Of a stretch of 64,000 bases of DNA, positions 3,416 to 51,300 are shown piece by piece (position 1 is the first letter of the stretch; each line of letters starts with the position of its first letter). A program made the translations under genes and the position numbers. The notes beneath the pieces are model-generated. The model did no database searches and had not been told where the DNA came from. It was given only the letters and a program-made list of their open reading frames with translations. This DNA comes from Acinetobacter phage Acba_11, in sequence record OQ101254.1. The stretch is one strand, 5' to 3'.

Positions 3416-3744
3416 GTGGGTTATTTAATGTTTATAGCGCTTCGCGAACAGGGCATTTAATTGAAGGTTTAACGCCATTCGAAGTGTTAAGAGATATGGA
3501 TAAGAAGGGGGAATTAGTCGTTGGGGGGATATTTTACAGCAGGGGGCAAGTAAGAAAAGAGGGCATTGATAAATGTGCTGATCTAGTACTTATGCAAACT
3601 GATACTCCAAAAATGGAGTTTGATTGGAGTTCCAAGTACCTAAAGGTGTTCTTTTTTCAGCTTGAGAGTTCCAGGCCAATAGTTATTACACAGGATCTCT
3701 TAGATGCCTATGCCATCGTTAAACGTGACGGAGAACAACAATGA
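3412..3744 (+). CDS. Hypothetical protein
   Basis: Translationally coupled ORF. Confidence 0.45.
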   Translation: MSGLFNVYSASRTGHLIEGLTPFEVLRDMDKKGELVVGGIFYSRGQVRKEGIDKCADLVLMQTDTPKMEFDWSSKYLKVFFFQLESSRPIVITQDLLDAYAIVKRDGEQQ

Positions 3745-4115
3745 AACCAGAACATTTTATTCGTGAGCAAGGATTGGATAAGGCGCGAGAGGTTGTTGCT
3801 GCTTCTGCCAATGCTTTAGTGCAATGCAGTGATGGCACAACGTTTCATGTGAATGATCTAAAGCGTCTAGTGGAGTCAGCAGACCTTATTGAATCACTTG
3901 GGGGCTATGAAGCTGCTGTTAATGAGTTGTACCACCAGAAAGATCAACATGCGTGGGAACACAAATTAGGTCATGGAGAGGTTTTCGCTCATCCATGTTG
4001 GGAGTGGGATGACGTGATGCGTTTGGATCAAGCAATTAAGGATGATGAAGCAATTTATGCATTAGGCATCGAAAGCAAAGACCACGAATCAATATACGGA
4101 GGCGGGGATGAGTAA
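3741..4115 (+). CDS. Hypothetical protein
   Basis: ATGA overlap with the upstream gene. Confidence 0.45.
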   Translation: MKPEHFIREQGLDKAREVVAASANALVQCSDGTTFHVNDLKRLVESADLIESLGGYEAAVNELYHQKDQHAWEHKLGHGEVFAHPCWEWDDVMRLDQAIKDDEAIYALGIESKDHESIYGGGDE

Positions 4116-6490: not shown

Positions 6491-6775
6491 ATGAGCGACA
6501 TTGAAACGGTAGGCTGGACGGCAGATAAGCGGTTTTTCATATTAAAAATTAATATGGAAACGAGTTTGACTACAGATGATTGTGAGGTTTTAGCAGGATT
6601 GTTTGTTGAAAAATATAGTCTGGAATTTTCAGGCTGCCAGTTTCATGGAAAGCTCGCAGTGATATGTGGAGATAAAGTTTACGTGAATCCTTGGGCGCTT
6701 GATCAAGAAGCAAGTGTAGATGAACCAGTTGAGGAACTGTCATTTAGTGAGTTCCAAACGTTATTGAATAATTAA
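6491..6775 (+). CDS. Hypothetical protein
   Basis: ORF in operon. Confidence 0.4.
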   Translation: MSDIETVGWTADKRFFILKINMETSLTTDDCEVLAGLFVEKYSLEFSGCQFHGKLAVICGDKVYVNPWALDQEASVDEPVEELSFSEFQTLLNN

Positions 6776-6796
6776 GGTATAGGGGGTGCTTATCTT

Positions 6797-7360
6797 ATGA
6801 CTACAGTTGTAATGGATTGGTCAAGATTTTCTATTTTTGAATGGTTCGTTTGTGGCTTAAACCCGAAATCACCTTCATTTGGTGCTGCGAACGTTAGATG
6901 TACTGATGGGAGGTCAATAGACTTTCATGACAAATTAGGGGTGGTAGCTGCAATGGGTGATCAACTAACAAAATCAGTTGCAATGGTCATTATGACCGAA
7001 GGAAAGTCCCAACGGGATTATGAATATGTTCGCAATCATTTAGCTAAAATAATGATTGATGGAGCAGAGAAAGATAAAAGAAGAGAGCCTAAGGGGATAG
7101 CTATTTACCACTTAGCTTGGTTAATTGCTCGTATTGTTATTGATTTTGCTTTAGATCCCGAATTAGAAAACGCACATAAGGATCCTGGTCGACTTGTTTA
7201 TGCCGGCATTAGAAGTTTCCAAATGGATCCGGAGGTATACCGCAAAACATGGAAACGATACGAAGATATGATGATTGCCGCGCTTAATGAAGAAATTTTA
7301 AAAGCTACTGTAATCGCTGAACGCTATAAGAAAGAAACCTTAAATGAAGCAAGAAATTAG
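6797..7360 (+). CDS. Hypothetical protein; positional candidate for a late-gene regulator/antiterminator
   Basis: Last gene of the early operon. Stop at 7360 immediately abuts the conserved late-promoter-like element at 7361. Confidence 0.4.
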   Translation: MTTVVMDWSRFSIFEWFVCGLNPKSPSFGAANVRCTDGRSIDFHDKLGVVAAMGDQLTKSVAMVIMTEGKSQRDYEYVRNHLAKIMIDGAEKDKRREPKGIAIYHLAWLIARIVIDFALDPELENAHKDPGRLVYAGIRSFQMDPEVYRKTWKRYEDMMIAALNEEILKATVIAERYKKETLNEARN

Positions 7361-7470
7361 TTTCCACTTTTGTGCTATTTGAGGTATAGTTTTATTAAAT
7401 TGGTCGAAGTATAAATTAGACCAAATTGCATTTAAAAGCTCATCTAAACAGGTGGGCTTTTTTATGGCCT
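7361..7470 (+). promoter_or_regulatory. Late-promoter-like element with downstream conserved box and weak terminator (copy 1 of 2; see 42261-42353)
   Basis: TTCCAC (7362-7367), 17-nt spacer, TATAGT (7385-7390). Then TTTATTAAATTGGTC, a 9-bp inverted repeat AAATTGGTC/GACCAAATT (about 7397-7427), TTAAAAGCTC and a T-run. The same architecture recurs after the tape-measure gene. Confidence 0.45.
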
Positions 7471-7479
7471 CATTAAAAG

Positions 7480-7509
7480 CTCGGGTCCTTAAGGATACCG
7501 AGTTTTTTT
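7480..7509 (+). terminator. Intrinsic terminator
   Basis: CTCGGGTCC-TTAA-GGATACCGAG hairpin followed by TTTTTTT. Paralogous to the 7780-7809 hairpin. Confidence 0.6.
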
Positions 7510-7540
7510 ATTTTTAGTCTTAATTCTAGGAATAAACAGC

Positions 7541-7771
7541 ATGACTATGACAAACGCTGAATTAGAGAATGAAATCAAAGCTCTAAAAACTCAAATTACA
7601 TCTCTTCAAGGAACTGTTAGCAATAAAGCTGATGCTACAGCAGTAAGTGCTTTGAATGCCCGAGTTACTAGTGTGGAAGGTGTAAATACAAGCCAAGGTA
7701 ATTCAATCACTACTTTGAATAATGGCTTAAATGCAGTTTCGACACGTGTTACTGCATTAGAAAATAAATAA
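7541..7771 (+). CDS. 76-aa protein composed of tail-fibre repeat units (homologous to the internal repeats of the 3489-aa J-like protein)
   Basis: KADATAVSALNARVTSVEGVNTSQGNSITTLNNGLNAVSTRV compared with J repeats such as KADATALNALTNRVSTAEGTITSQGNSITSL. Bracketed by paralogous terminators. Confidence 0.5.
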   Translation: MTMTNAELENEIKALKTQITSLQGTVSNKADATAVSALNARVTSVEGVNTSQGNSITTLNNGLNAVSTRVTALENK

Positions 7772-7779
7772 ATAAAAAA

Positions 7780-7809
7780 CTCGGTCCCAAATGGAGACCG
7801 AGTTTTTTT
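7780..7809 (+). terminator. Intrinsic terminator
   Basis: CTCGGTCC-CAAATG-GAGACCGAG hairpin followed by TTTTTTT. Confidence 0.7.
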
Positions 7810-7810
7810 A

Positions 7811-7956
7811 TATCGAGTAAAACCGGGGACGAAGTACTGCGGTAACAGCACTTCGACCTCCTGACAGATGTAGCCTGCCAAAAGCCAAGCCCAGCTATCG
7901 TGCACACGATTTGCGAAGGCTATCAAAAATATAAGCTTTTGCACAGGAAAATTTTT
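7811..7956 (+). promoter_or_regulatory. GC-rich leader upstream of dam containing an imperfect 10-bp hairpin (about 7830-7855) and a CCTCC box
   Basis: Local GC is far above the window average. CGAAGTACTG-CGGTAA-CAGCACTTCG stem-loop. No tRNA cloverleaf could be drawn. Confidence 0.3.
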
Positions 7957-8727
7957 ATGAAATCAAAACCAATAATTCCATGGCAAGGTGGTAAAACCCG
8001 TTTGGCTAAGGATTTGTTGTGTAAGTTCCCAGAACATTCATGTTATGTGGAATTATTTTGTGGTGGAGCAGCATTATTCTTCTTAAGAGAAGGACCAGCA
8101 AGAACTGAAGTAATAAATGATCTGAATGACGAGTTGGTAAATCTGTACCGGGTAGTGCAGAACCATTTAGAAGAATTTGTGCGTCAATTCAAATGGTGCA
8201 TTTCAAGTCGCCAGATTTTTGAATGGGAAAAACTAAAAGTACCAGACACACTAACGGATATTCAGCGAGCTGCAAGATTTTATTACCTTCAGCAACATGC
8301 GTTTGGTGGTAAGGTTTCTGGGCAGACATTTGGATATGCAACAACAGGCCGCTCTTTAAATCTCTTGCGGATAGAGGAAAGTTTAAGTGCAGCACATTTG
8401 CGTTTGAATGGAGTCTATATTGAAAACCTGTCCTGGGATATTTGCTTTGATAAGTATGACCGGGAACATACATTTTTTTATGCTGATCCGCCGTATCTAG
8501 ATACAGCAGGTTATGGAGTAGATTTTCCATTAGATCAGTATGAACTTCTTTCTGAAAAGATGAAGACTTGCAAAGGGAAGGTAATGCTATCAATTAATGA
8601 TCATGAAAAGATTCGTGAAATCTTTAAAGGTTTTAATTTTGCATGTACTTCAATTAATTATTCTGTTGGTCGTGATTTGGCTGCTAAGAGTAAGAAAAGT
8701 AATGAGCTGATAATTATGAATTATTGA
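7957..8727 (+). CDS. dam: DNA adenine methyltransferase, Dam family (ATG 7957; ORF open from 7900)
   Basis: N-terminal IIPWQGGKTRLAKDL (Dam PFLKWAGGK-like) and catalytic DPPY in FFYADPPYLDTAGYG. Confidence 0.8.
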   Translation: MKSKPIIPWQGGKTRLAKDLLCKFPEHSCYVELFCGGAALFFLREGPARTEVINDLNDELVNLYRVVQNHLEEFVRQFKWCISSRQIFEWEKLKVPDTLTDIQRAARFYYLQQHAFGGKVSGQTFGYATTGRSLNLLRIEESLSAAHLRLNGVYIENLSWDICFDKYDREHTFFYADPPYLDTAGYGVDFPLDQYELLSEKMKTCKGKVMLSINDHEKIREIFKGFNFACTSINYSVGRDLAAKSKKSNELIIMNY

Positions 8728-8775
8728 TCTCATAATTTGGTTTAAAAGTTTGCCGTAATAATTGCGGCGCAAACG

Positions 8776-8816
8776 GCCCCTCTAAAAAATGGTTATTGGA
8801 GGGGCTTTTTCTTTTT
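8776..8816 (+). terminator. Intrinsic terminator after dam
   Basis: GGCCCCTC...GAGGGGC stem with a TTTTTCTTTTT tail. Confidence 0.5.
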
Positions 8817-8834
8817 GGAGAAATAAAAGTGCGT

Positions 8835-9032
8835 ATGAGCCGATTATTACTAGCCACAACTGCTGGATTAATGGCCTTAAATACAAAACTAAGTGTTTTA
8901 AGCGCCTTGGTTGCATCATGTGGACACGCATCACCTTTGAGCTGTAAGGCAAATACAGTAAAGAGTAAACCTAACAAACTAAGTCAAAAGAAAAAACGCC
9001 TTATTGCTCGTCGTCTTAATAAACATAAGTGA
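8835..9032 (+). CDS. Hypothetical small protein (hydrophobic N-terminus, basic C-terminus)
   Basis: ATG 8835 within ORF 8796..9032. Confidence 0.25.
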   Translation: MSRLLLATTAGLMALNTKLSVLSALVASCGHASPLSCKANTVKSKPNKLSQKKKRLIARRLNKHK

Positions 9033-9215: not shown

Positions 9216-9672
9216 CGATTATTTTTGGCTTACAAGAAAAAAAGAACCAAGAACAAAACCAAAAAGCCGCCCATTACCCAAAGCAACTCAAAAATACCTA
9301 GAAGCTGAAGAAGAATTTATTCATGCATTAGATGTGCTTGAAATCAAATATGAAAAGAAATTTAAGTTTAAATCTACAAAACATTGGCGATTTGATTTTC
9401 ATTTAATTGAACATCGTATTCTGGTCGAAATTGCGGGTGGTCCATGGTCAGGTGGTCGAAAAGGTAAGCTCAAAGATAAAGCTTGGAGTATGGATCGATA
9501 CGATGATGCTGAAGCAATGGGATATACGGTTGTTCGGTTAGAGGCAGCACCAAGTTTTAAAATTAATGAATCTGGCCCGTTACAGATACAAGCTCATTTT
9601 GCTAGTCAGTGGCTTAAAAACTTAAAGAGGCAAATATTTAATGGATCAGATCAGACCGTTTCCACCAACTGA
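9205..9672 (+). CDS. Endonuclease-fold protein (Vsr/DUF559-like), first gene of packaging module A
   Basis: HWRFDFHLIEHRILVEIAGGPWSGG resembles the Vsr-type pDF...IFVDG.FWHG core. Paralog at 21665. Confidence 0.45.
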   Translation: MDSNDYFWLTRKKEPRTKPKSRPLPKATQKYLEAEEEFIHALDVLEIKYEKKFKFKSTKHWRFDFHLIEHRILVEIAGGPWSGGRKGKLKDKAWSMDRYDDAEAMGYTVVRLEAAPSFKINESGPLQIQAHFASQWLKNLKRQIFNGSDQTVSTN

Positions 9673-10282
9673 TTTTATTGATCAAGCTGAAGAAGAGGAA
9701 GCAATTCGTTTAATACCGGCTCCAGACCTAAAAAAATGGGTTGTGGCTAATTACTTAACGATTGGTGGGCCTCTTTATAATCCAGATCATGATCATATTG
9801 CTGAGTTACTTCATGATAATGAAGAGTTCTTGGCATTTGCTTGGGCCTCTTCTGCATATAAAAGCAAGCAGGCGATGGTGCTGGGGCAGTGTGAAAAAGT
9901 AATGTTTAACGTCGGTGGCTGGCGTAAAGCTAGACAAGAGCAACAGATGCGTGACTGGTTCGGTTTTGTGCCAACATACTTAATAACTGTCGACGCTTCT
10001 TTCTGTGAGCGTGCAAACGATACAGAGTTCTGTTATTTGCTTGAACATGAGCTTTACCACATTGGAGTGATGAGAGACGAGGACGGAGAAATTGTTTATA
10101 GCGATAGTTCTGGTCTGCCTAAGCACTATCTTGCTGGTCATGACGTTGAAGAGTTTATTGGCGTAGTTAAACGGTGGGGACCAAGTAAGAATGTTAAGCG
10201 ACTTATTGAGGTCGCAAAAAATCCGCCGTTTGTTTCTGATTTAGATATTGCGAGATGCTGCGGGAACTGTGTAATCAATTGA
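9641..10282 (+). CDS. HExxH metallopeptidase-like protein with C-terminal CCGNC motif (module A)
   Basis: LLEHELYHIGVM zinc-binding motif. Near-identical paralog at 22062. Confidence 0.45.
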   Translation: MDQIRPFPPTDFIDQAEEEEAIRLIPAPDLKKWVVANYLTIGGPLYNPDHDHIAELLHDNEEFLAFAWASSAYKSKQAMVLGQCEKVMFNVGGWRKARQEQQMRDWFGFVPTYLITVDASFCERANDTEFCYLLEHELYHIGVMRDEDGEIVYSDSSGLPKHYLAGHDVEEFIGVVKRWGPSKNVKRLIEVAKNPPFVSDLDIARCCGNCVIN

Positions 10283-10303
10283 GCCTTATGGCTCTTTTTT
10301 TTG
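10281..10303 (+). terminator. Hairpin plus T9 run between the HExxH gene and terS (module A)
   Basis: GAGCC-TTAT-GGCTC followed by TTTTTTTTT. Homologous element at 22700-22725. Confidence 0.5.
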
Positions 10304-10340
10304 TCCTGTTTGCTGTACGTAGCTGTACGAAGGGGAATTT

Positions 10341-10811
10341 ATGGCAGCACTAAAAGAGCCTGTGAAAATATTTATTGTTCAAGCTCTTGCATGCCGTGAT
10401 ACCCCTCAAGAAGTGGTTGAACAGGTCAAGCAAGAGTTTGGAGTTGATATTAGTCGTAGCCAATGCGAATGCTATGACCCAACAAAATATTCGGGCAGAA
10501 ACTTAAGCAAGAAGTTTGTTGAGCTTTTTGAATTAACCAGAGAGAAGTTTGATAAAGGCTTAATTGATATTCCTATTGCTAATAAGTACTACCGACTGAA
10601 GCAATACCAAAGACAGCTTGAGAAGACTAGAAACGTCAAAACAGCCTTAAAAATTCTTGAGCAAGCCGCTAAAGACATTGGTGGTCAATTTACTAATCGT
10701 CAAGAAATTACAGGCAAAGACGGCGGACCAGTTCAAACAGTTAATTCTGAAATTCCAGTTCCAATGGAAGATTACTTAAAAGCGCGGAGGGAAGTCTTAG
10801 ATGAGTACTGA
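10341..10811 (+). CDS. terS: Putative terminase small subunit (DUF2280-like), module A
   Basis: 156 aa, directly upstream of and overlapping terL. The C-terminal 90 aa are identical to copy B; the N-terminal part has diverged. Confidence 0.5.
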   Translation: MAALKEPVKIFIVQALACRDTPQEVVEQVKQEFGVDISRSQCECYDPTKYSGRNLSKKFVELFELTREKFDKGLIDIPIANKYYRLKQYQRQLEKTRNVKTALKILEQAAKDIGGQFTNRQEITGKDGGPVQTVNSEIPVPMEDYLKARREVLDEY

Positions 10812-12228
10812 TGCGGCTCGGGATAAAGCCATCCAGATCGAGGCGCAAGAAGATTTATATTTCTTTACAAGGTACATGTTTAAGGAGCGCCGAGGCTACA
10901 AATGGATGCAAAATTGGCACCACTTAGAAATCTGCGAAGCATTAATGAAAGTTTATCGCGGTGAGACTAAGCGGTTAATTATTAACGTACCACCTCGATA
11001 TTCAAAAACTGAAATTGCTGTAATTAATTTTATGGCTTGGTGTTTTGGAAAGAAACCTGACTGTGAGTTTATTCATATCAGTTACTCGGCAATGCTTGCC
11101 GCAAATAATGCATTTCAGACTCGTAATATGGTTCAAGAAAAGGCTTATAAAAAGGTCTTTCCTGATCTTAAATTACGTGAGGATAGTAAAGCTAAGGATT
11201 TCTGGCGCACAGATGCAGGCGGAGTCTGCTATGCGACTGGTACTGGCGGTACCATTACAGGTTTTGGTGCAGGCAAAATGCGTGAAGGCTTTGGTGGTTG
11301 CATCATCATTGATGACCCGCATAAGGCCGATGAAGCCAAATCAAAAACTATCCGTGAAGGTGTAATTGACTGGTTCCAAAATACTCTCGAGTCTCGTACT
11401 AACTCACCAGAAACGCCAATTATTGTCATTATGCAGCGTCTTCATGAAGATGATTTGGCTGGATGGCTGCTAGGTGATAGAAAAGACGGCGTTCCTGTAG
11501 CTGGTGGTAACGGTGAAGTGTGGGAGCATCTATGTCTTTCGGCTATTCAAGAAGACGGATCTGCATTGTGGCCAGCAAAACACAATATTCAAAAGTTGAA
11601 GCAAATGGAGCAAGCTGCGCCGTATGTTTTTGCCGGGCAATATCGTCAAATGCCATCACCGCCAGCAGGTGGTTTTTTTAAGCCTGACAATATTGAAATT
11701 GTGGATGCTTTACCTGCTGATGTAGTGAAGCAAGTAAGGGCTTGGGACTTTGGTGCTACTGAGAATGAAGGCGACTTTACAGCAGGTGTTAGAGAAGCTC
11801 TTGGCGCAGATGGTTTTACTTACATTGTCGATGTTACAAGAGGACAGCTTGGTCCAGACAATGTTAATAAGCGCTTAAAACAAGTCACAGAGTTAGATGG
11901 GATGGGCGTAACGGTAAGGATTCCTCAAGATCCTGGTCAAGCTGGTAAATCACAAGCTAGTGCATTCGTAAAACTTCTTGCAGGATATGACGTCAAAGCC
12001 AAACCAGTTTCGGGAGACAAACTCACACGTGCACAACCTTTTGCGGCGCAAGTTAACGTGGGTAACGTGAGAATGCTTAGAGGTGATTGGAATAAAGACT
12101 TTATTGAAGAGCTTCGCAATTTTCCAAATGGAACGCATGACGACCAAGTTGATGCTGGTTCAGATGCATTTAATGAATTGAATGGAGGTTTTGAGGCCTT
12201 CTTTGCTGATATGGGATTTGCTCGATGA
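10801..12228 (+). CDS. terL: Terminase large subunit, module A
   Basis: 475 aa. ATPase-like PPRYSKTE and IIIDDPH motifs. C-terminal nuclease-domain HDDQVDA. Followed by a portal gene with ATGA overlap. Confidence 0.85.
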   Translation: MSTDAARDKAIQIEAQEDLYFFTRYMFKERRGYKWMQNWHHLEICEALMKVYRGETKRLIINVPPRYSKTEIAVINFMAWCFGKKPDCEFIHISYSAMLAANNAFQTRNMVQEKAYKKVFPDLKLREDSKAKDFWRTDAGGVCYATGTGGTITGFGAGKMREGFGGCIIIDDPHKADEAKSKTIREGVIDWFQNTLESRTNSPETPIIVIMQRLHEDDLAGWLLGDRKDGVPVAGGNGEVWEHLCLSAIQEDGSALWPAKHNIQKLKQMEQAAPYVFAGQYRQMPSPPAGGFFKPDNIEIVDALPADVVKQVRAWDFGATENEGDFTAGVREALGADGFTYIVDVTRGQLGPDNVNKRLKQVTELDGMGVTVRIPQDPGQAGKSQASAFVKLLAGYDVKAKPVSGDKLTRAQPFAAQVNVGNVRMLRGDWNKDFIEELRNFPNGTHDDQVDAGSDAFNELNGGFEAFFADMGFAR

Positions 12229-13676
12229 GTGACGTAACTTTTAAACATCCTGAATATGTTAAAAACTTGCCATATTGGCAGAAGCTAGATGATGTGTGTG
12301 AAGGCGAGGATGCTGTAAAGGCTAAAGGAGAAAAGTATCTTCCGAAACCCAATGCTCATGATCAATCACCTGCAAATAAAAGTGCTTATGAGGCTTATCG
12401 TACTCGGGCAGTCTTTTATGAAGTAACGGGGACTACATCTAATAGTTTAGTTGGTGCAGCTTTTGCAACCGATCCAAGTTTTAAATTTCCTCCAGAACTA
12501 GCTCACTTAGAACGCAATGCTAACGGCGCGGGATTAAGTGCTTATCAATTGGCACAGAACGGGATCCGACATTTATTAAAGCATTATCGTTGTGCTTTAT
12601 ATGTTGACTATCCTGCAGTTACACCGGCTCGAAATCTTGCGGAGTTTAAACAGCAAAAAGCCTACCCGATGATTCACTTATTGAATGCCATTGATGTGAT
12701 CAATTGGGATTCAATGATGATTGATAACCAGAAAAAGCTTTGCTTGGTGGTCATCCGTGAATTTACTTCAGAACGAGGCGCTGATGGCTTTAGCAAATCT
12801 GAGGTAGAGCAATACAGAGTACTTCGTTTAGAGCCTGATAATGAAGGAAACTTCATCTATACAGTTCAAGTTTACACAAAAGGCGACAAGGGTACATGGA
12901 AGGGCGAAGATAAGAAGTATCCCACTGATAATAACGGGGATTTCTGGTCTTATATTCCATTCACTTTTGTGGGGGCTATTGATAACTCTGAAGAGATTAA
13001 AAAGCCTCCATTGCTCCCATTGGCTAATCTTAATTTAGCTCATTATAGAGATAGTGCGGACTTTCAAGAGTCCGTTTTTTATATGGGCCAACCACAGTTT
13101 TATGCTAAGGGAGTTAATTGGGCTTGGTATGACGAGGCTAAAAAGCGTGGCATTTATATCGGTGCGAAAGTTCTATTACCTTTACCTGAAAACGGTGATT
13201 TGGGGATTGTACAAGCAGATCCAAACACATTAGCACGGGAAGCTATGAAGGATAAGTGGGAGCAAATGAAGGAGCTTGGTGCTCGACTTATTGAAAAAGG
13301 TTCCGCAGCTAAAAAGACTGCTACTGAATCTAACAGTGATGATGCCGTGCAGCATTCCGTTCTTTCACTTTGTGTTGTGAATATGAATGAAGCTTTGTCT
13401 ATGGCTTTACGTTGGGCTGCTAAATTTGTAGTACCTAATGTTGATGTTCTGACTAAAGATGAACTGATGTTCGAAATTAGTCAGGAATTTAACAAGCAAG
13501 GTTATTTAGCTGAGTTGGCTCGTCAATTGTTTGAAGCAGCTTTACAAGGTAGATCTTCATTCAAATCTTGGTGGGAATACAACCAAACAGGAATGTTTCC
13601 TAAACAAAAATATGAAGAAGAAATCCTAAATGTTGAAGCTGAACAGGATGGGACTTTGAATCAAGGAGTGAATTGA
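12225..13676 (+). CDS. Portal protein, module A
   Basis: 483 aa, between terL and the head-morphogenesis gene. Start overlaps the terL stop. Confidence 0.75.
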   Translation: MSDVTFKHPEYVKNLPYWQKLDDVCEGEDAVKAKGEKYLPKPNAHDQSPANKSAYEAYRTRAVFYEVTGTTSNSLVGAAFATDPSFKFPPELAHLERNANGAGLSAYQLAQNGIRHLLKHYRCALYVDYPAVTPARNLAEFKQQKAYPMIHLLNAIDVINWDSMMIDNQKKLCLVVIREFTSERGADGFSKSEVEQYRVLRLEPDNEGNFIYTVQVYTKGDKGTWKGEDKKYPTDNNGDFWSYIPFTFVGAIDNSEEIKKPPLLPLANLNLAHYRDSADFQESVFYMGQPQFYAKGVNWAWYDEAKKRGIYIGAKVLLPLPENGDLGIVQADPNTLAREAMKDKWEQMKELGARLIEKGSAAKKTATESNSDDAVQHSVLSLCVVNMNEALSMALRWAAKFVVPNVDVLTKDELMFEISQEFNKQGYLAELARQLFEAALQGRSSFKSWWEYNQTGMFPKQKYEEEILNVEAEQDGTLNQGVN

Positions 13677-13677
13677 T

Positions 13678-14781
13678 ATGGCGGCAACTATCAAAGAACT
13701 CTTAGAGGCACTAACTCAACACCAAGCATATCTTTTTCGCGCTTCATCAAAAACAGTTAATGAATTATTAGGTTTATTTAATGATGATACAAAAGCAATG
13801 CTTTCAAAGCTGCGTGATCTATTAGAGGAACTTAATGATTCAGAGAAAATTGCTTTAGCTGGTGGGAAGTATACAACGTCAAACCTCAGAGAGATTAAAG
13901 ATTTGATTGACCAATGGTTTGCTAGTGTAAATACAAGCTTACCTGAAGCTTTCACCGTCTCTGCTACCGCTTTAGCGGTTTATGAAGCTAATTACATAGC
14001 CAAGCTATACGGAGCGAAAAATAAAACTCTTAGCGGTGACAAGTTCTATTCTGCTGCTAAAAAGGTACCATTGGCTGGTGGTGCCCTAGTTGATGATCTT
14101 TTATCAAGAATTACTGAAGCTGCCCGTCAAAAAGTTGAATATGCAATCAGAGATGGTATTAACACTGGCAAAACTAATAGTGAGATTATTCAGCGTATCC
14201 GTGGTACCAAGAAGCTAAATTATGAAGACGGATTACTCAACAGCACAAAATCAGACATTGAGCGCACTGTAAGAACGGTTCGGAGCCATGTAGCTAACCA
14301 GGCATATTTAAAAAGTTTTGATCAAATTGGCTTCAAATATGTGCGATTTGTGAGTGTTCTTGATGGAAGAACTTCAAAACTTTGTGCATCCCTTGATGGA
14401 AGCTTTTGGGAAATAAATGACCCAGCAAAGCGCGTTCCTCCATTACATCCAAATTGTCGAAGCATTCTGGTACCAGTTGAGAAAGACGGTTCTTTAGCTG
14501 GTCAGCGTCCTTTTGTGATGGATGAGAGAAGAGTGAAAGACATCCCCAAAGAAGAGCGTGATCAGTTGATTGGGCAAATGGATGCAAACATAACATTTAA
14601 AGAGTTCTTCAAAAAGACAGATGACTTCTTTCAAAAAGAATGGTTGGGACCAAAGCGTTACAAACTCTTCAAAGAGGGAAAATTTGATTTTGAAAAGTTC
14701 TTCGATCCGGATGGACGTCTTTATACACTCGACCAACTTCGCATGTTGGACGAACAATTGTTCAAGAGGTTGGGAATATGA
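13678..14781 (+). CDS. Head morphogenesis protein (Mu gpF / SPP1 gp7 family), module A
   Basis: 367 aa with the HPNCRS motif typical of Mu F-like proteins. Confidence 0.75.
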   Translation: MAATIKELLEALTQHQAYLFRASSKTVNELLGLFNDDTKAMLSKLRDLLEELNDSEKIALAGGKYTTSNLREIKDLIDQWFASVNTSLPEAFTVSATALAVYEANYIAKLYGAKNKTLSGDKFYSAAKKVPLAGGALVDDLLSRITEAARQKVEYAIRDGINTGKTNSEIIQRIRGTKKLNYEDGLLNSTKSDIERTVRTVRSHVANQAYLKSFDQIGFKYVRFVSVLDGRTSKLCASLDGSFWEINDPAKRVPPLHPNCRSILVPVEKDGSLAGQRPFVMDERRVKDIPKEERDQLIGQMDANITFKEFFKKTDDFFQKEWLGPKRYKLFKEGKFDFEKFFDPDGRLYTLDQLRMLDEQLFKRLGI

Positions 14782-15039
14782 ATTTTACTTTAAGTGGTGA
14801 GGGGAAAATTCAACTATCTACTCGAGCAAAATACAGATTGCGTAGATGGCTTAGAAAACTTGAAAAGAGGTCGAAGTTATGAAGCAAATAACTATGACTC
14901 AAGCACAATACATCCTAAGTACAAATCTTATTGTTGTGCCTTTTGTAAGGAAGTTGATTCCAAGATATATGGCTATTTTAGGATACAACTTCAAACAGCC
15001 CACAGCACAGATTCCGCATTAAACCTAATTCAAACCATA

Positions 15040-15061
15040 GCACCTTCGGGTGCTTTTTTTA
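15040..15061 (+). terminator. Intrinsic terminator (GCACC-TTCG-GGTGC plus T7), conserved in both modules
   Basis: Same hairpin at about 28172-28192 in module B. Confidence 0.6.
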
Positions 15062-15073
15062 TATGAGGTCATC

Positions 15074-15586
15074 ATGACAAAGCAACCGCAAACACTTCAA
15101 GAGCTAGTTCAAAATGTTGAATATTTCAATGTGGACCAAGCATCACCAGATGCACTACCTAAACGCATTATATGCATCCTAAAACTTCACTCTGGAGTGC
15201 AAGTAAACGGCGAGTATTTGATTCCTGAAGGTTCACCTGTTGGTGATTACAATCCGTTTGCACTTACATCTGCCATTGAAAATTTAAAAAAGCTCGGATT
15301 TGAAATTATTGAACCACCTTCTGAACCACAAGTAATCGAAGGTGAGGCAGTTGAGGTTGGCCAGAATTTAGATGACCCATCACTTAAAGCGGTTGAAGCA
15401 CCAAAAATTAAAAGTCTGGAATCCCATGTAACTGTTACGGGCGCAGGGGTTAATACTTATGATGTTCGTCATGCAAATCTGCATTCAATTGAAGCATTGA
15501 CCTCACTTTTGAAGGTTACGAAGTTAAATACTGATGTGTCGAATGCTGCAAACTCTAAGCTTGTTGAACTTATTAATGGACTCTAA
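15074..15586 (+). CDS. Hypothetical protein (moron slot, module A only)
   Basis: ATG 15074 with GAGG RBS. No counterpart in module B. Confidence 0.45.
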   Translation: MTKQPQTLQELVQNVEYFNVDQASPDALPKRIICILKLHSGVQVNGEYLIPEGSPVGDYNPFALTSAIENLKKLGFEIIEPPSEPQVIEGEAVEVGQNLDDPSLKAVEAPKIKSLESHVTVTGAGVNTYDVRHANLHSIEALTSLLKVTKLNTDVSNAANSKLVELINGL

Positions 15587-15654
15587 GTTTCAGGCGTCTT
15601 GAGCATATTTTAATTTTAACCAGCACACTAAGGTGCTTTTTTTGTGAGAAAGAA

Positions 15655-15969
15655 ATGACCAAAGAAGTAACAGAGCAAGAGTTAGCGGAAAAGTCTGTGG
15701 CACCCCGAGTAACTAAAGCGCAAATTGATGCGATGATGGACCGCGTTACATATACAGTGGAGCAGCGCCCTGGAGGTACAACATCTACTTTTGTACATGC
15801 ATTTTTAGATGGAAAATTTTTTCTAGCAACGGGTTTTAGCGCATGTGTGAATGCAGAAAACTTTGATGCTGAAATGGGTGAGCGTATAGCTCGAAGCAAC
15901 GCAGAAAAGTCAGCCGAAAATAAACTTTGGGAACTCGAAGGCTATCGTTTATTTGCCACAAACTTCTAA
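15655..15969 (+). CDS. Gp49-like phage protein (N4 gp49 / Sf6 gp66 family), module A only
   Basis: ATGFSACVNAENFDAEMGERIARSNAEKSAENKLWELEGY matches the CV.P.NFD..G...A...A..K.WELEGY signature. Confidence 0.6.
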   Translation: MTKEVTEQELAEKSVAPRVTKAQIDAMMDRVTYTVEQRPGGTTSTFVHAFLDGKFFLATGFSACVNAENFDAEMGERIARSNAEKSAENKLWELEGYRLFATNF

Positions 15970-16010
15970 GTTTTTAATCGAAATAAAGCGTCCTTAGGGG
16001 CGCTTTTTTA

Positions 16011-16082
16011 ATGTCTGCCGGAAGCGGATGCGGACGGTGAATCCGGGCGGATGCCCACTTGTGTATATAGGTTGGATGACCA
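16011..16082 (+). promoter_or_regulatory. Conserved GC-rich element upstream of the scaffold gene (module A copy)
   Basis: TGCCGGAAGCGGATGCGGACGGTGAATCCGGGCGGATGCCCA, then TGTATATAGG, then ATG. Direct repeat GCGGATGC x2, 5-bp inverted repeat CGGAT/ATCCG. Conserved at about 28440-28508 despite diverged flanks. Confidence 0.4.
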
Positions 16083-16850
16083 ATGAAACTTAAAACAGTA
16101 ACGATCGACGGTAAAGTTTATGCGGAAGTAGACGGCGATAAGCCGATCTATATTCATGATGACGGCAAAGAAATGCCACATGATGCACCTCATTCGGTAG
16201 CAACAATTGCACGCTTAAACAATGAAGTTAAAACACATCGTGAAGCCAAAGAAGCAGCTGAAAAAGCATTAAAAGCTTTTGAAGGAATCGAAGACCCTGC
16301 GGCAGCTAAAAAGGCCTTACAAACAATCCAAAATCTCGATGATAAAAAGCTGGTGGATGCCGGTGAAGTTGAGAAAGTTAAAGCTGAAGCTATCAAAGCA
16401 GTTGAAGAAAAATATGCCCCGATTGTTGAGCAACGTGATGCTCTTGAGGCCTCATTGCATAAAGAGCTAATCGGCGGTGGTTTTGCTCGTTCTAAGTACA
16501 TTCAAGACAACATTGCAGTACCTGTGGATATGGTGCAAGCGACCTTTGGTCATCACTTCAAAATCGAAGAGGGCAAGGTGGTTGCATATGACCAGAACGG
16601 CGAAAAGATTTATTCACGTGTACGCCCAGGTGAACTTGCAAATGTTGATGAAGCTTTAGAGTCATTGGTTGGTGGATACCAGCATAAAGACTTAATTCTT
16701 AAAGGTGGTAAAGGGACTGGTGGAGGTTTCCAAAGCGGGGGCAAAGGTGGAGCACCTACTGGAATGAAACGCAGTGAAATGTCTGTTTCTCAGAAAGCAG
16801 ATTACATCAAAGAACATGGCAATGATGCCTTCCTAAAACTACCGAACTAA
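16083..16850 (+). CDS. Capsid scaffolding protein, module A
   Basis: 255 aa, helix-rich, Gly-rich C-terminal tail, immediately upstream of the major capsid gene. Confidence 0.6.
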   Translation: MKLKTVTIDGKVYAEVDGDKPIYIHDDGKEMPHDAPHSVATIARLNNEVKTHREAKEAAEKALKAFEGIEDPAAAKKALQTIQNLDDKKLVDAGEVEKVKAEAIKAVEEKYAPIVEQRDALEASLHKELIGGGFARSKYIQDNIAVPVDMVQATFGHHFKIEEGKVVAYDQNGEKIYSRVRPGELANVDEALESLVGGYQHKDLILKGGKGTGGGFQSGGKGGAPTGMKRSEMSVSQKADYIKEHGNDAFLKLPN

Positions 16851-16877
16851 TCATTAAATATTTGGAGATAAGTAGTT

Positions 16878-17834
16878 ATGACTACGACAGTTAATTCAGA
16901 CATGATCATCTATAATCAATTTGCTCAAACTGCTTATTTAGAGCGTTTGCAAGATAATTTGAATGTATTTAACCAAGCCTCTAATGGTGCAATTGTTTAT
17001 CGCAATGAGATCATTGAAGGTGATTTCAATAAAGAAGCATTCTACAAAGTGGGCGGTAGCATCAAACATCGTGATGTGAATTCAACCGCCAAAGTAGTTC
17101 CAGAGAAAATTGGTTCTGGTGAGTCTGTAGGCGTAAAAGTCCCATATAAATATGGTCCTTATGCATCAACTGAAGAGGCATTTAAGCGCCGTGCTCGTAC
17201 ACCAGAAGAATTTGCTATGGTTGTTGGTTACGATCTTGCAGATGCATTGGTTGCAGGCCGATTAGAGTACAGTTTAGCTTCTTTAAAAGCTGCTATTTCT
17301 AGCAATCCAGACATGGTTGCAAAAGGTAGTATCGTTGTTGATGGCCGCAAAGCATTGACTCGTGGTATGCGAAAGTTTGGTGATAAGTTTGGCCGCATTG
17401 GCTTATGGGTGATGAACTCAGATACATATTTCGATATTGTCGATGATGCAATCACTAAGCAAATTTATGGTGAATCTGAAATCGTTATCTACGGTGGTTT
17501 ACCGGGAACCTTAGGAAAGCCGGTCTTGGTGACGGACGCTGTAGGTGATAACGATGCTTTTGGTTTGCAGTATGGCGCTGTCACTGTAACTGAATCACAA
17601 GTACCGGGCTTCCGAGCTTATGACATGAATGATGAAGAAAACTTAGCAATCGGTATGCGTGCTGAAGGTGCATTTAACTTAGATATTCTTGGTTATAGTT
17701 GGGATACATCGAAAGGTGAAAATCCTGACCTTACATTACTTGGTTCAAGCGCTAACTGGATCAAATATGCAACCAGCAACAAAATGACAGCAGGTACCTT
17801 ACTTGATTTATCGGGTACAGCGACAACTGGTTAA
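16878..17834 (+). CDS. Major capsid protein, module A
   Basis: 318 aa, follows the scaffold gene, strong RBS GGAGATAAG. Paralog at 29304. Confidence 0.75.
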   Translation: MTTTVNSDMIIYNQFAQTAYLERLQDNLNVFNQASNGAIVYRNEIIEGDFNKEAFYKVGGSIKHRDVNSTAKVVPEKIGSGESVGVKVPYKYGPYASTEEAFKRRARTPEEFAMVVGYDLADALVAGRLEYSLASLKAAISSNPDMVAKGSIVVDGRKALTRGMRKFGDKFGRIGLWVMNSDTYFDIVDDAITKQIYGESEIVIYGGLPGTLGKPVLVTDAVGDNDAFGLQYGAVTVTESQVPGFRAYDMNDEENLAIGMRAEGAFNLDILGYSWDTSKGENPDLTLLGSSANWIKYATSNKMTAGTLLDLSGTATTG

Positions 17835-17854
17835 AACCTAAAAATTAAAACCTA

Positions 17855-17879
17855 AGGGGGCTAATAAGCCCTCTTTTTT
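17855..17879 (+). terminator. Intrinsic terminator after the major capsid gene
   Basis: AGGGGGC-TAATAA-GCCCTCT followed by TTTTTT. Confidence 0.6.
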
Positions 17880-17899
17880 ATTATTAAGAGAAAAGCGCC

Positions 17900-18565
17900 A
17901 TGAAGATTATCTATACACGCATTGCAGCAGCGGCTGCATTAGAGACAGGCATTATTGCTAACCCTGACTATTATGAAAACCCAAATTTGAAAGCAAAAGA
18001 GGTAATTATTTACGGTAATTATCCAAAGATTCAAAAGGATTATGAATCTTTGGAAGTTCCAGTTGAAGTTCGTAAGTTGGAAGTGCCACAAAAAACGACT
18101 TTGGCCACAGTAAATGTCGCAGTGGGAATTACCCCTGAACTTCAAGCTGTGATGGATGATGCAAAAGCTGAATGTGAAAAGGTAGTTGAAGAAAACACTC
18201 AGCTTAAGCAGAAAATTGCCATCTTAGAGCAGGCCGGTGGTAACCAGTCAGAGTTGTTATCTGAAAATTCACGATTAAAAGATGCAGCAGTTTTAGCAGA
18301 TAAAGCTCTCAAAGATGCTGAAGCTCAAGTGGTCGGTATAAAAACTGAATTTGAAGCTTTTAAAAATGATATTCCTGCAATGCAGGCACGTATTGCTGAA
18401 TTGGAAGCTGGAAAAGCGGCAGAAAACCCAGCTACAGAAACGGCAGCTAATGATTTTGAAAACTGGTCAAATGATCAATTAAAAGAGTATTTGGCTAGTA
18501 AAAACATTGGTTACAAGCCGTCTGCAACAAAAGCAGAACTTCTTAAATTAATCCCGAAGGAATAA
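17900..18565 (+). CDS. Head-associated coiled-coil protein with C-terminal HeH (Rho-N/SAP-like) motif, module A
   Basis: Central coiled coil. C-terminal LKEYLASKNIGYKPSATKAELLKLI. Confidence 0.4.
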   Translation: MKIIYTRIAAAAALETGIIANPDYYENPNLKAKEVIIYGNYPKIQKDYESLEVPVEVRKLEVPQKTTLATVNVAVGITPELQAVMDDAKAECEKVVEENTQLKQKIAILEQAGGNQSELLSENSRLKDAAVLADKALKDAEAQVVGIKTEFEAFKNDIPAMQARIAELEAGKAAENPATETAANDFENWSNDQLKEYLASKNIGYKPSATKAELLKLIPKE

Positions 18566-18569
18566 TGCA

Positions 18570-18959
18570 ATGAGCTTTATTACTGTAGATGACGCAAATT
18601 CAATTTTGGGCAGCGATTTTGCACCAGACAGTGATAAGGCTCGTCTGGTGAAGCTGGCAAATGTGTGGATGAAAAACAGAATTGGTTTTGTACCAGATCC
18701 AATTGATCCACTTCTTAAGGACGCGGCTTGTGAAATTATCAAAGGAATTCTGGCCAAAGTAATTTATAACGGCAAAGAGCAGCAGTTGAAGCGTAAGAAA
18801 GTTAAGGCTGATTCTGTTGAGTCAGAAAAAGAATTTCAAGACGGATCTGAAGCAATCTCTAGCTTTGAACAGATAGCAATTGATTTTATTGATTCACTTG
18901 ATTTGAAAGATCCAAATGCAAGTTTTAATGGCTTTGGCATACCACTTTACAGGGCATGA
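18570..18959 (+). CDS. Head-tail connector/adaptor protein candidate, module A
   Basis: Position after the capsid genes. Conserved in module B. Confidence 0.45.
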   Translation: MSFITVDDANSILGSDFAPDSDKARLVKLANVWMKNRIGFVPDPIDPLLKDAACEIIKGILAKVIYNGKEQQLKRKKVKADSVESEKEFQDGSEAISSFEQIAIDFIDSLDLKDPNASFNGFGIPLYRA

Positions 18960-19329
18960 TATGGGCTTACGTGACGAAATTCAGGCAGACATTGCTGAAG
19001 CATTTAATGATGATTTAGCAGATGCCATTCATACCTTTACATGTGAGCGGATCTCTAAAACGAATTGGGATCCTAAAACTGAAACTTATGTTGAAGTTAA
19101 AGAAAACTATTCTGGCCGTGGCGTTCTGTTTGGCTCATACAGTCAATATGAGATCCAAACACTTGGAGTACTGGCCACGGATAAAAAGGCAACCGTGCTT
19201 CAAAATGAAGTAACTATGACTCCAAAAATTGAAGATGAATGGTTAACTGCCTTAGGCTCATTCCGGGTAATTAATATTCAACAGGATCCAGCTAATACTA
19301 TTTGGAAATGTCAGCTTCGAAAAGTGTAG
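18916..19329 (+). CDS. Head completion protein candidate, module A
   Basis: Position. Paralog at 31341. Confidence 0.4.
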   Translation: MQVLMALAYHFTGHDMGLRDEIQADIAEAFNDDLADAIHTFTCERISKTNWDPKTETYVEVKENYSGRGVLFGSYSQYEIQTLGVLATDKKATVLQNEVTMTPKIEDEWLTALGSFRVINIQQDPANTIWKCQLRKV

Positions 19330-19337
19330 GGGCTAAA

Positions 19338-19742
19338 ATGGTTAATCCTGATTATGTTCCTGAATGGTATATCTCGCCTTTTCAACATGTGCAGTACACG
19401 CTTGCTCGAAATCAACTACACATGGATTTGTTATTTGAAGATATGGATAAGGCCGATCAATTTTTGGATATGGGAGCGGATGCGCAAGTTAGTACTTTTT
19501 CTGATGGTGCATATGCAATCGTCCAAATTGGTGATACGGCGGATAAAGACCGAATTCAAGTTTATGGATTGCTTTTACATGAAGCTGTTCATGTCTGGCA
19601 AAAGATTAAAAAGCTCATGGGTGAACGAGAACCGAGCTCTGAGTTTGAAGCTTATTCAATTCAGGCGATCGCTCAAGACCTTTTTAAAATGTATGAAGAA
19701 AGCGAGGTGAATGATGGGATGGAAGGGGAAAAAGCCAACTGA
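19338..19742 (+). CDS. Head-tail joining protein candidate, module A (ATG 19338)
   Basis: RBS AGGGGC. Paralog at 31763. Confidence 0.4.
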   Translation: MVNPDYVPEWYISPFQHVQYTLARNQLHMDLLFEDMDKADQFLDMGADAQVSTFSDGAYAIVQIGDTADKDRIQVYGLLLHEAVHVWQKIKKLMGEREPSSEFEAYSIQAIAQDLFKMYEESEVNDGMEGEKAN

Positions 19743-20082: not shown

Positions 20083-20083
20083 A

Positions 20084-20482: not shown

Positions 20483-20483
20483 T

Positions 20484-22709: not shown

Positions 22710-22767
22710 GCCTAATGGCTCTTTTTTTTGCCCATTTTGTTATACGTAGTTATACGATGAGGAAGTT

Positions 22768-26103: not shown

Positions 26104-26104
26104 G

Positions 26105-27208: not shown

Positions 27209-27252
27209 TTTTTCTTATGTTATATTTTTTAAAACATCAGAATTTATACAAT

Positions 27253-48300: not shown

Positions 48301-51300
48301 AGAAACGTCTCAGCGCAAGTCAGAAGATGCTGCACTGTTAAACAATATTGAGACTTATAAGTCGAGCACCAATGGCACTTTGTCTAGTCTGCAAACGCAA
48401 ATTAATACCAACGCGACAAATACAAGTGCAAATACATCAAAAATTTCTTCGCTTGACTCTCGTTTAACCACAAACGAAGGCAAAACCGCAGATGCGATTA
48501 ATGCAGCGGCAACAGCTCAACAAACTGCCAATACCGCCGTTACTAATGCGGCAGCAGCAGCTTCGGCAGTTACCTCACTAAAATCAGAGTTGAGTACAGG
48601 CAAAGGCATCAACAATATCATTGCGCCTTTTTCTGATCCGCAAGAACTATCACCTTACATTATCGGTGCGTCGAGAACCGTTGCCTTAGTAAAATCACCA
48701 ATGCGTATTAAGGGTAATGCTTATGACGTTACATTTAATGCGGTGGCTGGCAGTATTTATTTTGGTTCCTCGTCACTAGCAACAGTCAATACTGCGGCGG
48801 CAGGTGTTGTCAGTGGCGGAAAGCGTTACATGCTAAGCGCTTATTTAAAGAACCTCGATGCCACTAAACAGGCAGATGTTTACTTTACATTGCATTGGTT
48901 TAAACGTGCAGCAAACGGCACTTTCACGGCTTCTCAAAGTGTTTTATTAAATCAGGCAACTAACAACACACGAGTAACACCTTCAAACGACGGCGGTACA
49001 ATTAGCTGTAAAGCTGTAGCAGCACCACCAGATGCAGTTGCCTTTGCGGTTATCTGTTCTGGCAACGGCGTTTATAACGTCGCTGGTTCACGCATTCTCA
49101 TTGACATGTTAATGCTTGAAGAGGTCGTTGGTGTCGATGTACCTGCTTCAACATGGACAGCAGGACCAACTGATTTAAGTGCTATTAAATCCGCTCTTGA
49201 TGCCAATGCTTCTGCTATTAGCAAAATCGATACCCGTGTAACAAATGCCGAAGGCACCATTACAAGCCAAGGCAATTCAATTACTCAATTGAATAACAGC
49301 GTTACGTCAATCAATGGCGAACTTACGAAGAAAGCTGATGCTACGGCTTTAAATGCCTTAACCAACCGAGTATCGACAGCAGAAGGCACAATTACAAGTC
49401 AAGGCAATTCAATTACGTCTTTACGTAATGATTTAAACGCAACCAATGACAAGGTTTCGTCAAAAGCGGACTCAAGTGCATTAAATTCCTTAGATTCTAA
49501 GGTTACAAGCATTGATGGAAGAGTAACTAGCAATACGAGTGCTGTGACCTCATTGCAAGGTCGTGTTTCAACCGTCGAGGGTGGACTTTCATCGAAAGCA
49601 GATGCCTCGGCATTAAACAATTACTACACCAAAACAGAGGCGGATTCTGCCGCTTCTGGCGCAATCGATAAGTTCAACAGTCAATTGACGATCGGCGGAG
49701 TAAACGCTGTTGCGAACTCAGAGGCTCCACGTACTTCAACGGCAGCGACTAACAAAGAATACTTGCTGTACGAACGCAGCGCCGAATTAAAAACGTTCTA
49801 TGACGAGAACCTTGAGAAGCCAATCACGATTTCGTTTGAAATGAGCGTTCCTGTGGCTGGACCAGTTCAAGTTTATTCGTCAAATGGTTCTGCTCACCAA
49901 TTCGTTACTTCCGTTAACGCGGTTATCGTCAATCAGTTTGCCAAATACTCAGTAACAGTTAGTCCAAAATCGCACACCGCAAGTACAACTGTTTCAACAA
50001 TTGAGTTCTATGGAACGTATGGAACTGGTCGTATCCCGACGATTCGTAAATTACAAATTGAAGCGGGCACAAAGGCTACCGCTTGGAGTCCAAGCCCTCG
50101 TGATACAAAGGCTGCAATTGACGCCAATGCTTCTGCAATTCAAACGACCCAAACAAAAGTTGACAATATCGATGGTCGGCTAACCACTGCTACAGATTCG
50201 ATTACGTCACTAAATTCGCGCATGTCTACAGCCGAAGGGAATATCAACAGCACAAATACTGCGGTTGGTGGACTTTCGACACGCATGGCAACCGCTGAGG
50301 GCAAGATCACCAATCAAAGTGATTCAATTGCATCGCTACAAAATAGCGTCACCTCAATCAATGGAACACTGGCAAACAAAGCCGATTCAAGCGCGGTCAA
50401 TAACTTAACTAGCCGAGTGGAAACAGCCGAGGGCAAGATTTCAAGTCAAAGCGGGCAGATTACTTCGCTTAGCAATAGCCTTGATCTAACAAACAGCAAC
50501 TTGAACGACGTAAATGTTCTGGCGCGACTGTTATCGCTTGGTAAGCCTCTACGCGAGGATCCAACTTTTAAAACTACCTCTTCGGGCGGTTTGTCTGCAT
50601 ACAATTTCCCTGCGGGAACCTCATGGATTAAGCAAGCCAAGTCAACAGACAACCCAACTGGCTCAACCCATGAAATGCTTATTAAGGCAACTCAAGCGTT
50701 GGGTGGTGGTTGGTATCCAACTGCTCCAACGCTCGTGCTTACTGCTAATAAGACATTCTTAATTAACCAAATTATTAAGATGCCAGTAGGCACGAGATTG
50801 CTACCTGTAGGTAACACCACTGGTACGGGTGGTTATATCAGAATCTTGGGTAACGATCTTGGGACTGGCAAATTTGAAACGTACTACTCGGTCGTTCAGG
50901 GTGGATCTGACTTAAGCAGCTCTATTCAGGGTCATTTCCGTGTAATTGCTGGGACCAACCCGCCAGTACCAACCGTTGATAGTCCAGTTTTTGTAATCCT
51001 CGCTTCATACGAAGTGTTTGATGTTACGGCTGTAAATGACACCATTCCAAAAGCGTATAGCGATGCTATTGCAGCCAATGCGAATGCTATTAACACGATC
51101 TCAAACGCCGTCAGCCAGCAAGGCAATACAATTGCTTCTCACAGCAATTCGATTACCCAACTCAACAACAGCATTACTAGCATTAATGGCGCACTTTCGA
51201 ATAAAGCGGACGCGAGTGCATTACAGTCATTGGATTCAAAAGTAACGCTAATCGATGGCAAAGTTACTTCAAATTCATCGGCCTTAACGGCTTTACAAAG

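Follow-up and report, generated by a model that had tools for sequence, protein, structure and literature searches.

The window analysed here is the whole 64,000-nt stretch from Acinetobacter phage Acba_11 (OQ101254.1), a temperate Acinetobacter baumannii siphophage that belongs to the AM106 group. Its late leader is composed of a promoter-like site with intrinsic terminators close by, followed by the packaging, head, and tail genes, and contains a small gene referred to below as the mini-gene (Table 1). The mini-gene is predicted to be the first ORF of the late transcript, inside a terminator cluster ordered t0, T1, gene, and T2, and the order of promoter-like site, hairpin, t0, T1, gene, and T2 is conserved as a unit across loci. 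The region 6700-9000 is 99.9% identical to AM106, phi1_092021, Acba_3, Acba_13, Acba_14, and Acba_18.

Table 1. Features of the late leader and of the tail fibre gene in the window.
Feature	Position	Strand	Basis or remark
187-aa protein, probable lambda-Q-like late antiterminator (phrog_5656)	6797..7360	+	AF2 fold match
Promoter-like site TTTCCA-18-TATAGT, candidate late promoter	7361..7390	+	consensus scan
Leader hairpin TTGGTC...GACCAA	7400..7425	+	RNA fold prediction
t0, first terminator-like hairpin and U-run of the late leader	7434..7463	+	predicted fold -13.2 kcal/mol
T1, upstream copy of the paralogous terminator pair	7480..7509	+	motif and RNA fold
Shine-Dalgarno-like AGGA	7528..7531	+	9 nt 5' of the mini-gene ATG, read from sequence
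Mini-gene	7541..7771	+	ATG-started ORF, 76 aa, stop UAA 7769-7771
T2, downstream copy, stronger, bidirectional A-run/U-run hairpin	7772..7809	+	-20.2 kcal/mol
Structured non-coding leader between T2 and the Dam methylase gene	7810..7956	+	conserved across different backbones (L011/L012)
D12-class N6-adenine DNA methyltransferase (Dam methylase), next late-leader accessory gene	7957..8727	+	PF02086, E 6.7e-28
J-like central tail fibre, 3489 aa	45305..55774	+	paralogous coiled-coil blocks (BLASTP)
Part of the fibre gene most similar to the mini-gene at the DNA level	49328..49441	+	71.1% over 114 nt vs 7622-7735

The 187-aa protein encoded upstream of the leader has no Pfam or NCBIfam family, and phrog_5656 is of unknown function. 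Its AF2 model (pLDDT 80) has only one whole-length fold match in the PDB, lambda Q in the loading complex (7ubn_Q; probability 0.97, TM 0.50/0.46), but with a weak E of 0.2. Among named sources, the protein was found only in Acinetobacter, and the modelled fold makes it a candidate new sequence family of Q-type antiterminators. A gene of 186-188 aa lies directly 5' of the mini-gene cassette in the AM106-like loci and in L011/L012, which have a different backbone and where the upstream gene is tied to the 187-aa protein by gene size and position only. L011/L012 possess an HK97/ClpP-type head module, different from that of the AM106-like phages, yet carry the mini-gene.

The position of the mini-gene downstream of a late promoter element, claimed in the earlier note, was supported in that the gene lies just 3' of a probable, predicted Q-dependent late promoter. 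The TATAGTTTT core of this promoter-like site is conserved in all Q-module loci, L011 included. The leader hairpin that follows has an equivalent of different sequence in L009 and L011, and t0 is conserved in all loci examined, including that of Acba_16 with its different regulator. The late leader with t0 and the upstream hairpin folds strongly (z = -6.3). The two bracketing terminators had been described as paralogous (7480-7509 and 7780-7809), and they are indeed alike: T1 and T2 have CTCGG...ACCGAGTTTTTTTAT in common, both fold as a hairpin followed by a U-run, and CTCGG-N-CCGAGTTTTT occurs in just two copies (T1 and T2) in 64 kb, compared with 0.00 expected from shuffles. Beyond this pair, t0 constitutes a third terminator-like hairpin ahead of T1.

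No promoter-like site was found in the 31 nt between T1 and the mini-gene ATG, and both t0 and T1 lie upstream. From the fold match of the regulator and the layout of the leader, we infer that late transcription here is Q-dependent. Owing to the two terminators in front, the mini-gene would be expressed only once the antiterminator switches on late transcription. It would thus be silent in lysogens and would be the first late product, made together with and ahead of the virion proteins. Further downstream, the leader of approximately 150 nt at 7810-7956, folded together with T2, has a z-score of -5.8. An Rfam scan of 7000-8300 gave nothing near gathering score and only generic terminator or leader look-alikes, with sub-threshold matches to Thr_leader (28 bits; threshold 55) and Phe_leader (29.6 bits). 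A known RNA element in this interval was rejected, since all Rfam scores fell well short of gathering.

The 76-aa ORF proposed at 7541-7771 (+) was recovered as described. Its ribosome-binding site retains GGA at the same distance in other alleles, and the start codon is also conserved. A search of 5.8 billion proteins recovered a stand-alone family of 74-76 aa, with identity down to 71% and, where named, members belonging to A. baumannii or A. pittii. Length and frame are maintained in alleles at 71-97% identity, and six diverged alleles have 0 indels and 0 stop codons; pairwise dS is 0.21-0.88 and dN/dS 0.14-0.59, mostly 0.2-0.3. Since alleles down to 71% identity keep the frame and dN/dS is mostly 0.2-0.3, the mini-gene is, as judged from its alleles, a real protein-coding gene under purifying selection. 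Conservation in relatives, whose absence would have spoken against the gene according to the earlier note, is thus present. Two antisense ORFs, at 7749-7907 (-; 52 aa) and 7606-7944 (-; 112 aa), overlap the mini-gene and T2, and the 52-aa ORF is carried as a CDS in the phi1_092021 annotation; they are probably spurious calls, because the selection signal sits in the + frame.

Two explanations that assign no role to the protein product were considered against this coding signal. The first is a relic without function, in which a piece of the fibre was captured and has stayed open by chance. Repeated loss, a collapse to 25 aa, and truncation among the loci described below are consistent with it, as is a pattern scan of the reachable GTDB species-representative genomes, in which the mini-gene was not found and Acinetobacter gave distant fibre repeats only. 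However, at least six diverged alleles (dS 0.35-0.88) without stop or frameshift, dN/dS well below 1, and the conservation of core a/d positions, ribosome-binding site, and start codon make a relic very improbable. The second is a leader ORF, of which translation rather than the product matters: a ribosome at the UAA stop (7769-7771) would block the T2 hairpin and lead to translation-coupled late read-through. In most alleles, that of the window included, 2-8 nt separate the stop codon from the T2 stem, and the weak sub-threshold Rfam matches are leader-peptide attenuators. However, the amino acid sequence is under purifying selection (dN/dS ~0.25), which would be needless for a pure spacer ORF; the terminator begins ~55 nt past the stop codon in L182-type loci, and T2 is truncated in L007/L008. 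A Q-modified polymerase would also have no need of such a mechanism, and a leader ORF is therefore decidedly improbable.

The mini-gene has been annotated under different names. Its AM106 counterpart is orf17, annotated as "hypothetical protein; trimeric coiled coil protein", while phi1_092021 names the same ORF "glycerophosphoryl diester phosphodiesterase" (name listed with PQ859669.1 46273-46503). The match to phrog_4896 is limited to positions 227-276 of 291 (50 positions), which form the coiled-coil tail of the profile, and Pfam gave sub-threshold generic coiled-coil matches only. For these two reasons, the phosphodiesterase name looks like a mis-annotation, and a misleading database name is corrected whatever the function of the gene. 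A 69-aa metagenome look-alike of the mini-protein was also seen (L074), and its neighbours gave no informative family matches.

The mini-protein has no aromatic residue, Cys, Pro, or His, and is composed of heptads at 5-28, a KAD beta-layer at 29-31, and heptads at 32-74. The register before KAD reads L8(d), I12(a), L15(d), I19(a), L22(d), V26(a), S27(b), and N28(c); after K29-A30-D31 it restarts at A32(e), with the core V35, L38, V42, V45, N49, Q52, I56, L59, L63, V66, V70, and L73, so that the heptad a/d core, read from the sequence, is continuous on both sides of the KAD insert. Over 10 alleles, L8, I12, L15, L22, V26, L38, V42, Q52, I56, L59, and L73 are invariant core residues, and L63, V66, and V70 are near-invariant; K29, A30, and D31 are also invariant among alleles. 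The AF2 monomer model (pLDDT 91) has helices at 5-29 and 32-74, broken exactly at KAD (residues 30-31).

KAD-type beta-layers are known to follow a rule in which the element comes after position c or g and the downstream register starts from e, and all constructs of this type were trimeric (Hartmann et al., 2016, eLife, PMC4786415). Examples of such alpha/beta coiled coils are OMP100, with IENKADKAD, and the Streptococcus prophage tail-fibre hyaluronidase 2C3F (PMC4786415). The mini-protein has the same K-A-D after position c and the same restart at e as these beta-layer trimers (PMC4786415), and is assigned to them from its register and homologs. Compared with the PDB, the family profile matches essentially trimeric fibres only. 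The best match and nearest solved structure is the core of the P22 tail needle gp26, whose helical core aligns with the mini-protein at E 4.6e-9, and the others are reovirus sigma-1, SadA fragments, matrilin, and fibritin. The sequence agrees with what has been published for trimeric coiled coils interrupted by a single KAD beta-layer, and the mini-protein is predicted to be trimeric; it would probably form a short trimer. Searches against Pfam, PHROG, and NCBIfam gave generic coiled-coil or fibre-repeat matches only and no known chaperone family.

The same repeat is found in the giant tail fibre of the phage. The mini-protein has 51% identity to the 3489-aa fibre over 63 aa (E 3e-15; BLASTP), and 20 HSPs at E<1e-3 merge into 10 blocks of ~880 aa between fibre residues 903 and 3329. 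The fibre has nine KAD/KAE motifs between aa 903 and 3329, with 44-aa spacing where they are adjacent. The earlier note was right that the repeat is shared, but had it making up the distal 2500 aa of the fibre, while only ~880 aa in 10 blocks between globular domains are involved; it also counted two repeat units in the mini-protein, which has the same repeat as one KAD-centred unit plus flanking heptads, equal to ~1.7 periods of 44 aa. Like the stalk units, the mini-protein has the same motif, the heptads-KAD-heptads arrangement, and a core of V/L/I and N/Q; unlike them, it is encoded separately in the late-leader region, 23-37 kb away from the fibre gene, and has a start codon, stop codon, and terminator to itself. 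An HMM profile of the repeat family recovered 1159 representative proteins, nearly all of them 1-5 kaa long and containing as many as 29 repeats; among the best 150 of these 1159, no small stand-alone protein occurs other than the mini-gene cluster.

At the DNA level, a second match to the fibre has 74.6% identity over 67 nt, and none better was found within the window. The best match (Table 1) agrees with the earlier estimate of about 70% DNA identity and with the view that the gene is an old paralog and not a recent copy. From these alignments, the mini-gene is an ancient stand-alone copy of a unit that is present approximately 10 times in the fibre stalk.

It had also been suggested that the mini-gene serves as a donor for recombinational variation of the fibre, and a silent donor cassette recombining with the fibre repeats, or a DGR-like template, is accordingly a further rival explanation. 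It draws on the repeat family common to mini-gene and fibre and on the NANASAI motif of the 90-aa alleles, which also opens the fibre coiled-coil blocks. However, mini-gene alleles reach at best 68-88% DNA identity to any fibre, over just 30-114 nt; exact matches run to no more than 14 nt with the own fibre and 20 nt with any fibre tested, and no allele co-varies with the fibre of its own phage or fits it better than foreign fibres. The 33 mini-gene/fibre mismatches fall on all four bases (8 A, 12 T, 9 G, and 4 C), and 18 of them affect the third base of a codon. A scan of ten ORFs revealed no reverse transcriptase domain. Compared with a DGR template repeat, then, the mini-gene has 71% identity to the fibre and mismatches that are not adenine-specific. 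The donor suggestion fails on these observations and the earlier statement that the gene is no DGR template stands, because there is no allele-fibre co-variation, exact matches do not exceed 20 nt, and the mismatch spectrum is not adenine-specific; both forms were rejected as candidates, and a donor role is extremely improbable. The idea of a fibre-tip mimic was likewise rejected, since the homology falls on the coiled-coil stalk blocks, not on the C-terminal receptor-binding end, and a signal peptide is absent.

The mini-gene and its terminators vary as a unit among related phages. Exactly 300 bp are absent from Acba_23, with flanks 99.6% identical, and its junction has one chimeric terminator composed of the T1 stem-loop and the T2 downstream flank. 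In L170 the junction differs, the left arm and loop coming from T1 and the right arm (GGAGACCGAG) from T2, and at that of L176 a pure T2 is retained. In the natural deletions, T1 recombined as the left partner, and independent T1 x T2 recombinations best explain the three distinct junctions. The mini-gene is also absent from L165, L166, L170, L171, L175-L180, and L188. Other loci have a mini-gene that has collapsed in frame to 25 aa, between two TTAAAACTC repeats (L172-174), an allele lengthened to 90 aa by a 14-aa insert, or a truncated mini-gene fusion (P0011). The L182-type, L007, and L009 loci keep the mini-gene although the DNA on either side of it differs. A comparison of the window with L004 gave ~99% identity in the flanks and ~70% in the mini-gene core, which indicates allele exchange. 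According to these comparisons, the duplicate terminators form a 300-bp direct-repeat cassette that appears to have been lost repeatedly by T1 x T2 recombination, and the mini-gene reads as conserved yet dispensable, that is, accessory. Whatever the function, the locus is a clean natural case of a gene that is bracketed by duplicated terminators and acts as an excisable cassette, with three different deletion junctions recovered. A conserved non-coding element of ~320 nt (…GCTAAAGACTGTTT…GATGCACGAAAG…CATGCAGTTCATCGCGCATGGATGGG…), which may be mobile or a structured RNA, was also observed at L007 10232-10580 and L182 ~3730-4050; it lies downstream of the mini-gene in L007/L008 and upstream in the 90-aa-allele loci.

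Morons and other accessory genes occur downstream of lambdoid Q/PR', for instance, stx in Stx phages. The mini-gene is moron-like as an extra late-leader gene with its own terminator (T2), atypical GC, and presence/absence among near-identical phages; unlike morons, it has no promoter of its own and has two terminators upstream, which makes expression from the prophage unlikely and Q-dependent expression expected. The main rival explanation is drawn from this class: a moron-like accessory late gene whose trimeric coiled-coil product acts off the fibre, for example, as an anti-defence decoy for a host sensor of fibre-like coiled coils or as a modulator of the host or of lysis, with the fibre homology reflecting origin only. 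The site, a hot spot between regulator and terminase, agrees with it, as the adjacent Dam methylase (orf18 in AM106), which is followed by an HNH gene, terminase, portal, and then the head and tail genes, is itself replaced in L007/L008. Similarly, the presence/absence and length polymorphism among near-identical phages, the GC of 35% (40% for the window and 44% for the fibre), the mosaic allele exchange with L004, the presence of the mini-gene in phages with a different head module, and the lack of co-variation with the fibre all favour it. Against it, only generic coiled-coil matches came from Pfam, PHROG, and NCBIfam, the lack of an own promoter and the two upstream terminators argue against expression in lysogens, and every genome in which both genes were readable has a repeat-type fibre. 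An action away from the fibre is considered unlikely on balance.

The distribution of the mini-gene was compared with fibre type. All nine IMG/VR contigs with both genes readable pair the mini-gene with a long repeat-type J fibre, and all six complete phage genomes with the mini-gene also carry a repeat-type long fibre; Acba_23, which lost the cassette cleanly, has an unrelated tail without the repeat. A search with the Acba_23 tail protein did not place mini-gene-negative contigs among the best 80 matches listed. At a first pass, the mini-gene was present in 9/9 repeat-fibre contigs and 0/14 short-J contigs, the latter result being confounded by lineage because short-J phages have a different late regulator. 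Among regulator-module-positive genomes only, those with the gene comprise nine repeat and zero non-repeat fibres, and those without it two and one, respectively, which is not significant; a statistical link of the mini-gene to fibre type was therefore rejected. Regulator-positive prophages with a repeat-type fibre but without the mini-gene are L176/L102 (3593-aa fibre) and L178/L096. The mini-gene is also absent from Acba_4, Acba_15, and Acba_16, whose fibre gene is 100% identical and which form plaques (PMC9866556); this is a weaker point, since the Illumina assemblies may be chimeric. The mini-gene moves with the late-regulatory module, not with the tail module. Both the repeat-fibre prophages that lack the gene and this modular association weaken the suggestion in the earlier note of a trimerisation or chaperone peptide for the fibre.

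Known fibre chaperones provide a comparison for such a role. T4 gp57A is an all-helical protein of 79 aa without aromatics, Cys, or Pro, which forms trimers and hexamers, is needed for fibre trimerisation, and is made late and not found in the virion (PMC3004832). The mini-protein is similar to gp57A in size and composition, but there is no detectable sequence relationship between the two, and no T4-like phage was among the tblastn matches. Furthermore, gp57A is indispensable and shares no paralogy with its clients, whereas the phage can do without the mini-gene, which is paralogous to the fibre stalk. Compared with the fibre chaperones in general (gp57A, lambda Tfa/gp38-type, and Peptidase_S74), the mini-protein has no profile membership, and its natural variants show that fibre trimerisation does not strictly require it.

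The description of the locus, namely, a fibre-stalk-derived coiled-coil gene of the late leader with a predicted trimeric product in a terminator-bracketed, excisable cassette, is very probably correct. A role of the mini-protein in fibre assembly is a real but doubtful possibility, and the whole statement, in which the description is joined to an inferred fibre-assembly helper role, stands slightly nearer to doubt than to belief. As an assembly helper, which is nevertheless the favoured reading, the mini-protein would act in trans during morphogenesis of the repeat-rich fibre, where it could transiently pair with, or cap, nascent coiled-coil segments and so reduce out-of-register association. 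It would then be a non-essential efficiency factor, gp57A-like in action and unrelated to gp57A.

A more specific version of the assembly role holds that the phage makes a separate copy of one unit of its own fibre before the fibre itself, to serve in trans as a "registry" peptide; such a chaperone would descend from its own client and be unrelated to gp57A or Tfa. Transient mixed trimers with the ~10 near-identical stalk segments of the three 3489-aa chains would favour in-register zipping; this version is considered unlikely. A variant that is less likely regards the free unit as a decoy for a host immune sensor of fibre-type coiled coils. Help in assembly, if true, would mean a new and very simple kind of fibre helper that is a piece of the client itself, and would bear on the expression and engineering of the giant receptor-binding fibres of Acinetobacter phages. 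Without a fibre-assembly role, the mini-gene would rank among the ordinary small accessory genes of phages. The finding itself is a modest curiosity rather than a new class of system.

Acba_16, which has an unrelated late regulator, possesses a non-homologous, coiled-coil-looking ORF of 56 aa (MDTIEAKKNLNALCNEIEKLQ…) after a terminator at the equivalent leader position (L015 2217-2387), and small coiled-coil ORFs may recur at the late-leader site. The L009/L010 loci have the mini-gene 2.9 kb from a fibre gene; the DNA between is a patchwork of early-gene fragments, which suggests that the two genes lie close together in a rearranged or tandem prophage remnant and that this is not the native layout.

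The claim that the mini-gene lies far from the fibre gene holds with 37.5 kb in the window, but this distance is inflated by a 12.4-kb duplicated head module and is ~23 kb in AM106. The duplication comprises 9217-20693 and 21677-33118, which are tandem diverged copies (83-85% identity) of the whole packaging and head module, including a small terminase-like gene, terminase, portal, MuF, capsid, and others. All records of related phages contain this module once only. In the window, copy A resembles the AM106/Acba_14 type (~94.5% identity) and copy B the Acba_15/Acba_4 (Vieuvirus) type (~94.9%); the DNA flanking the module is 99.9-100% identical to Acba_14. The alternative is that this may be a real double-module genome; the arrangement is probably a chimeric assembly of two co-propagated phages.
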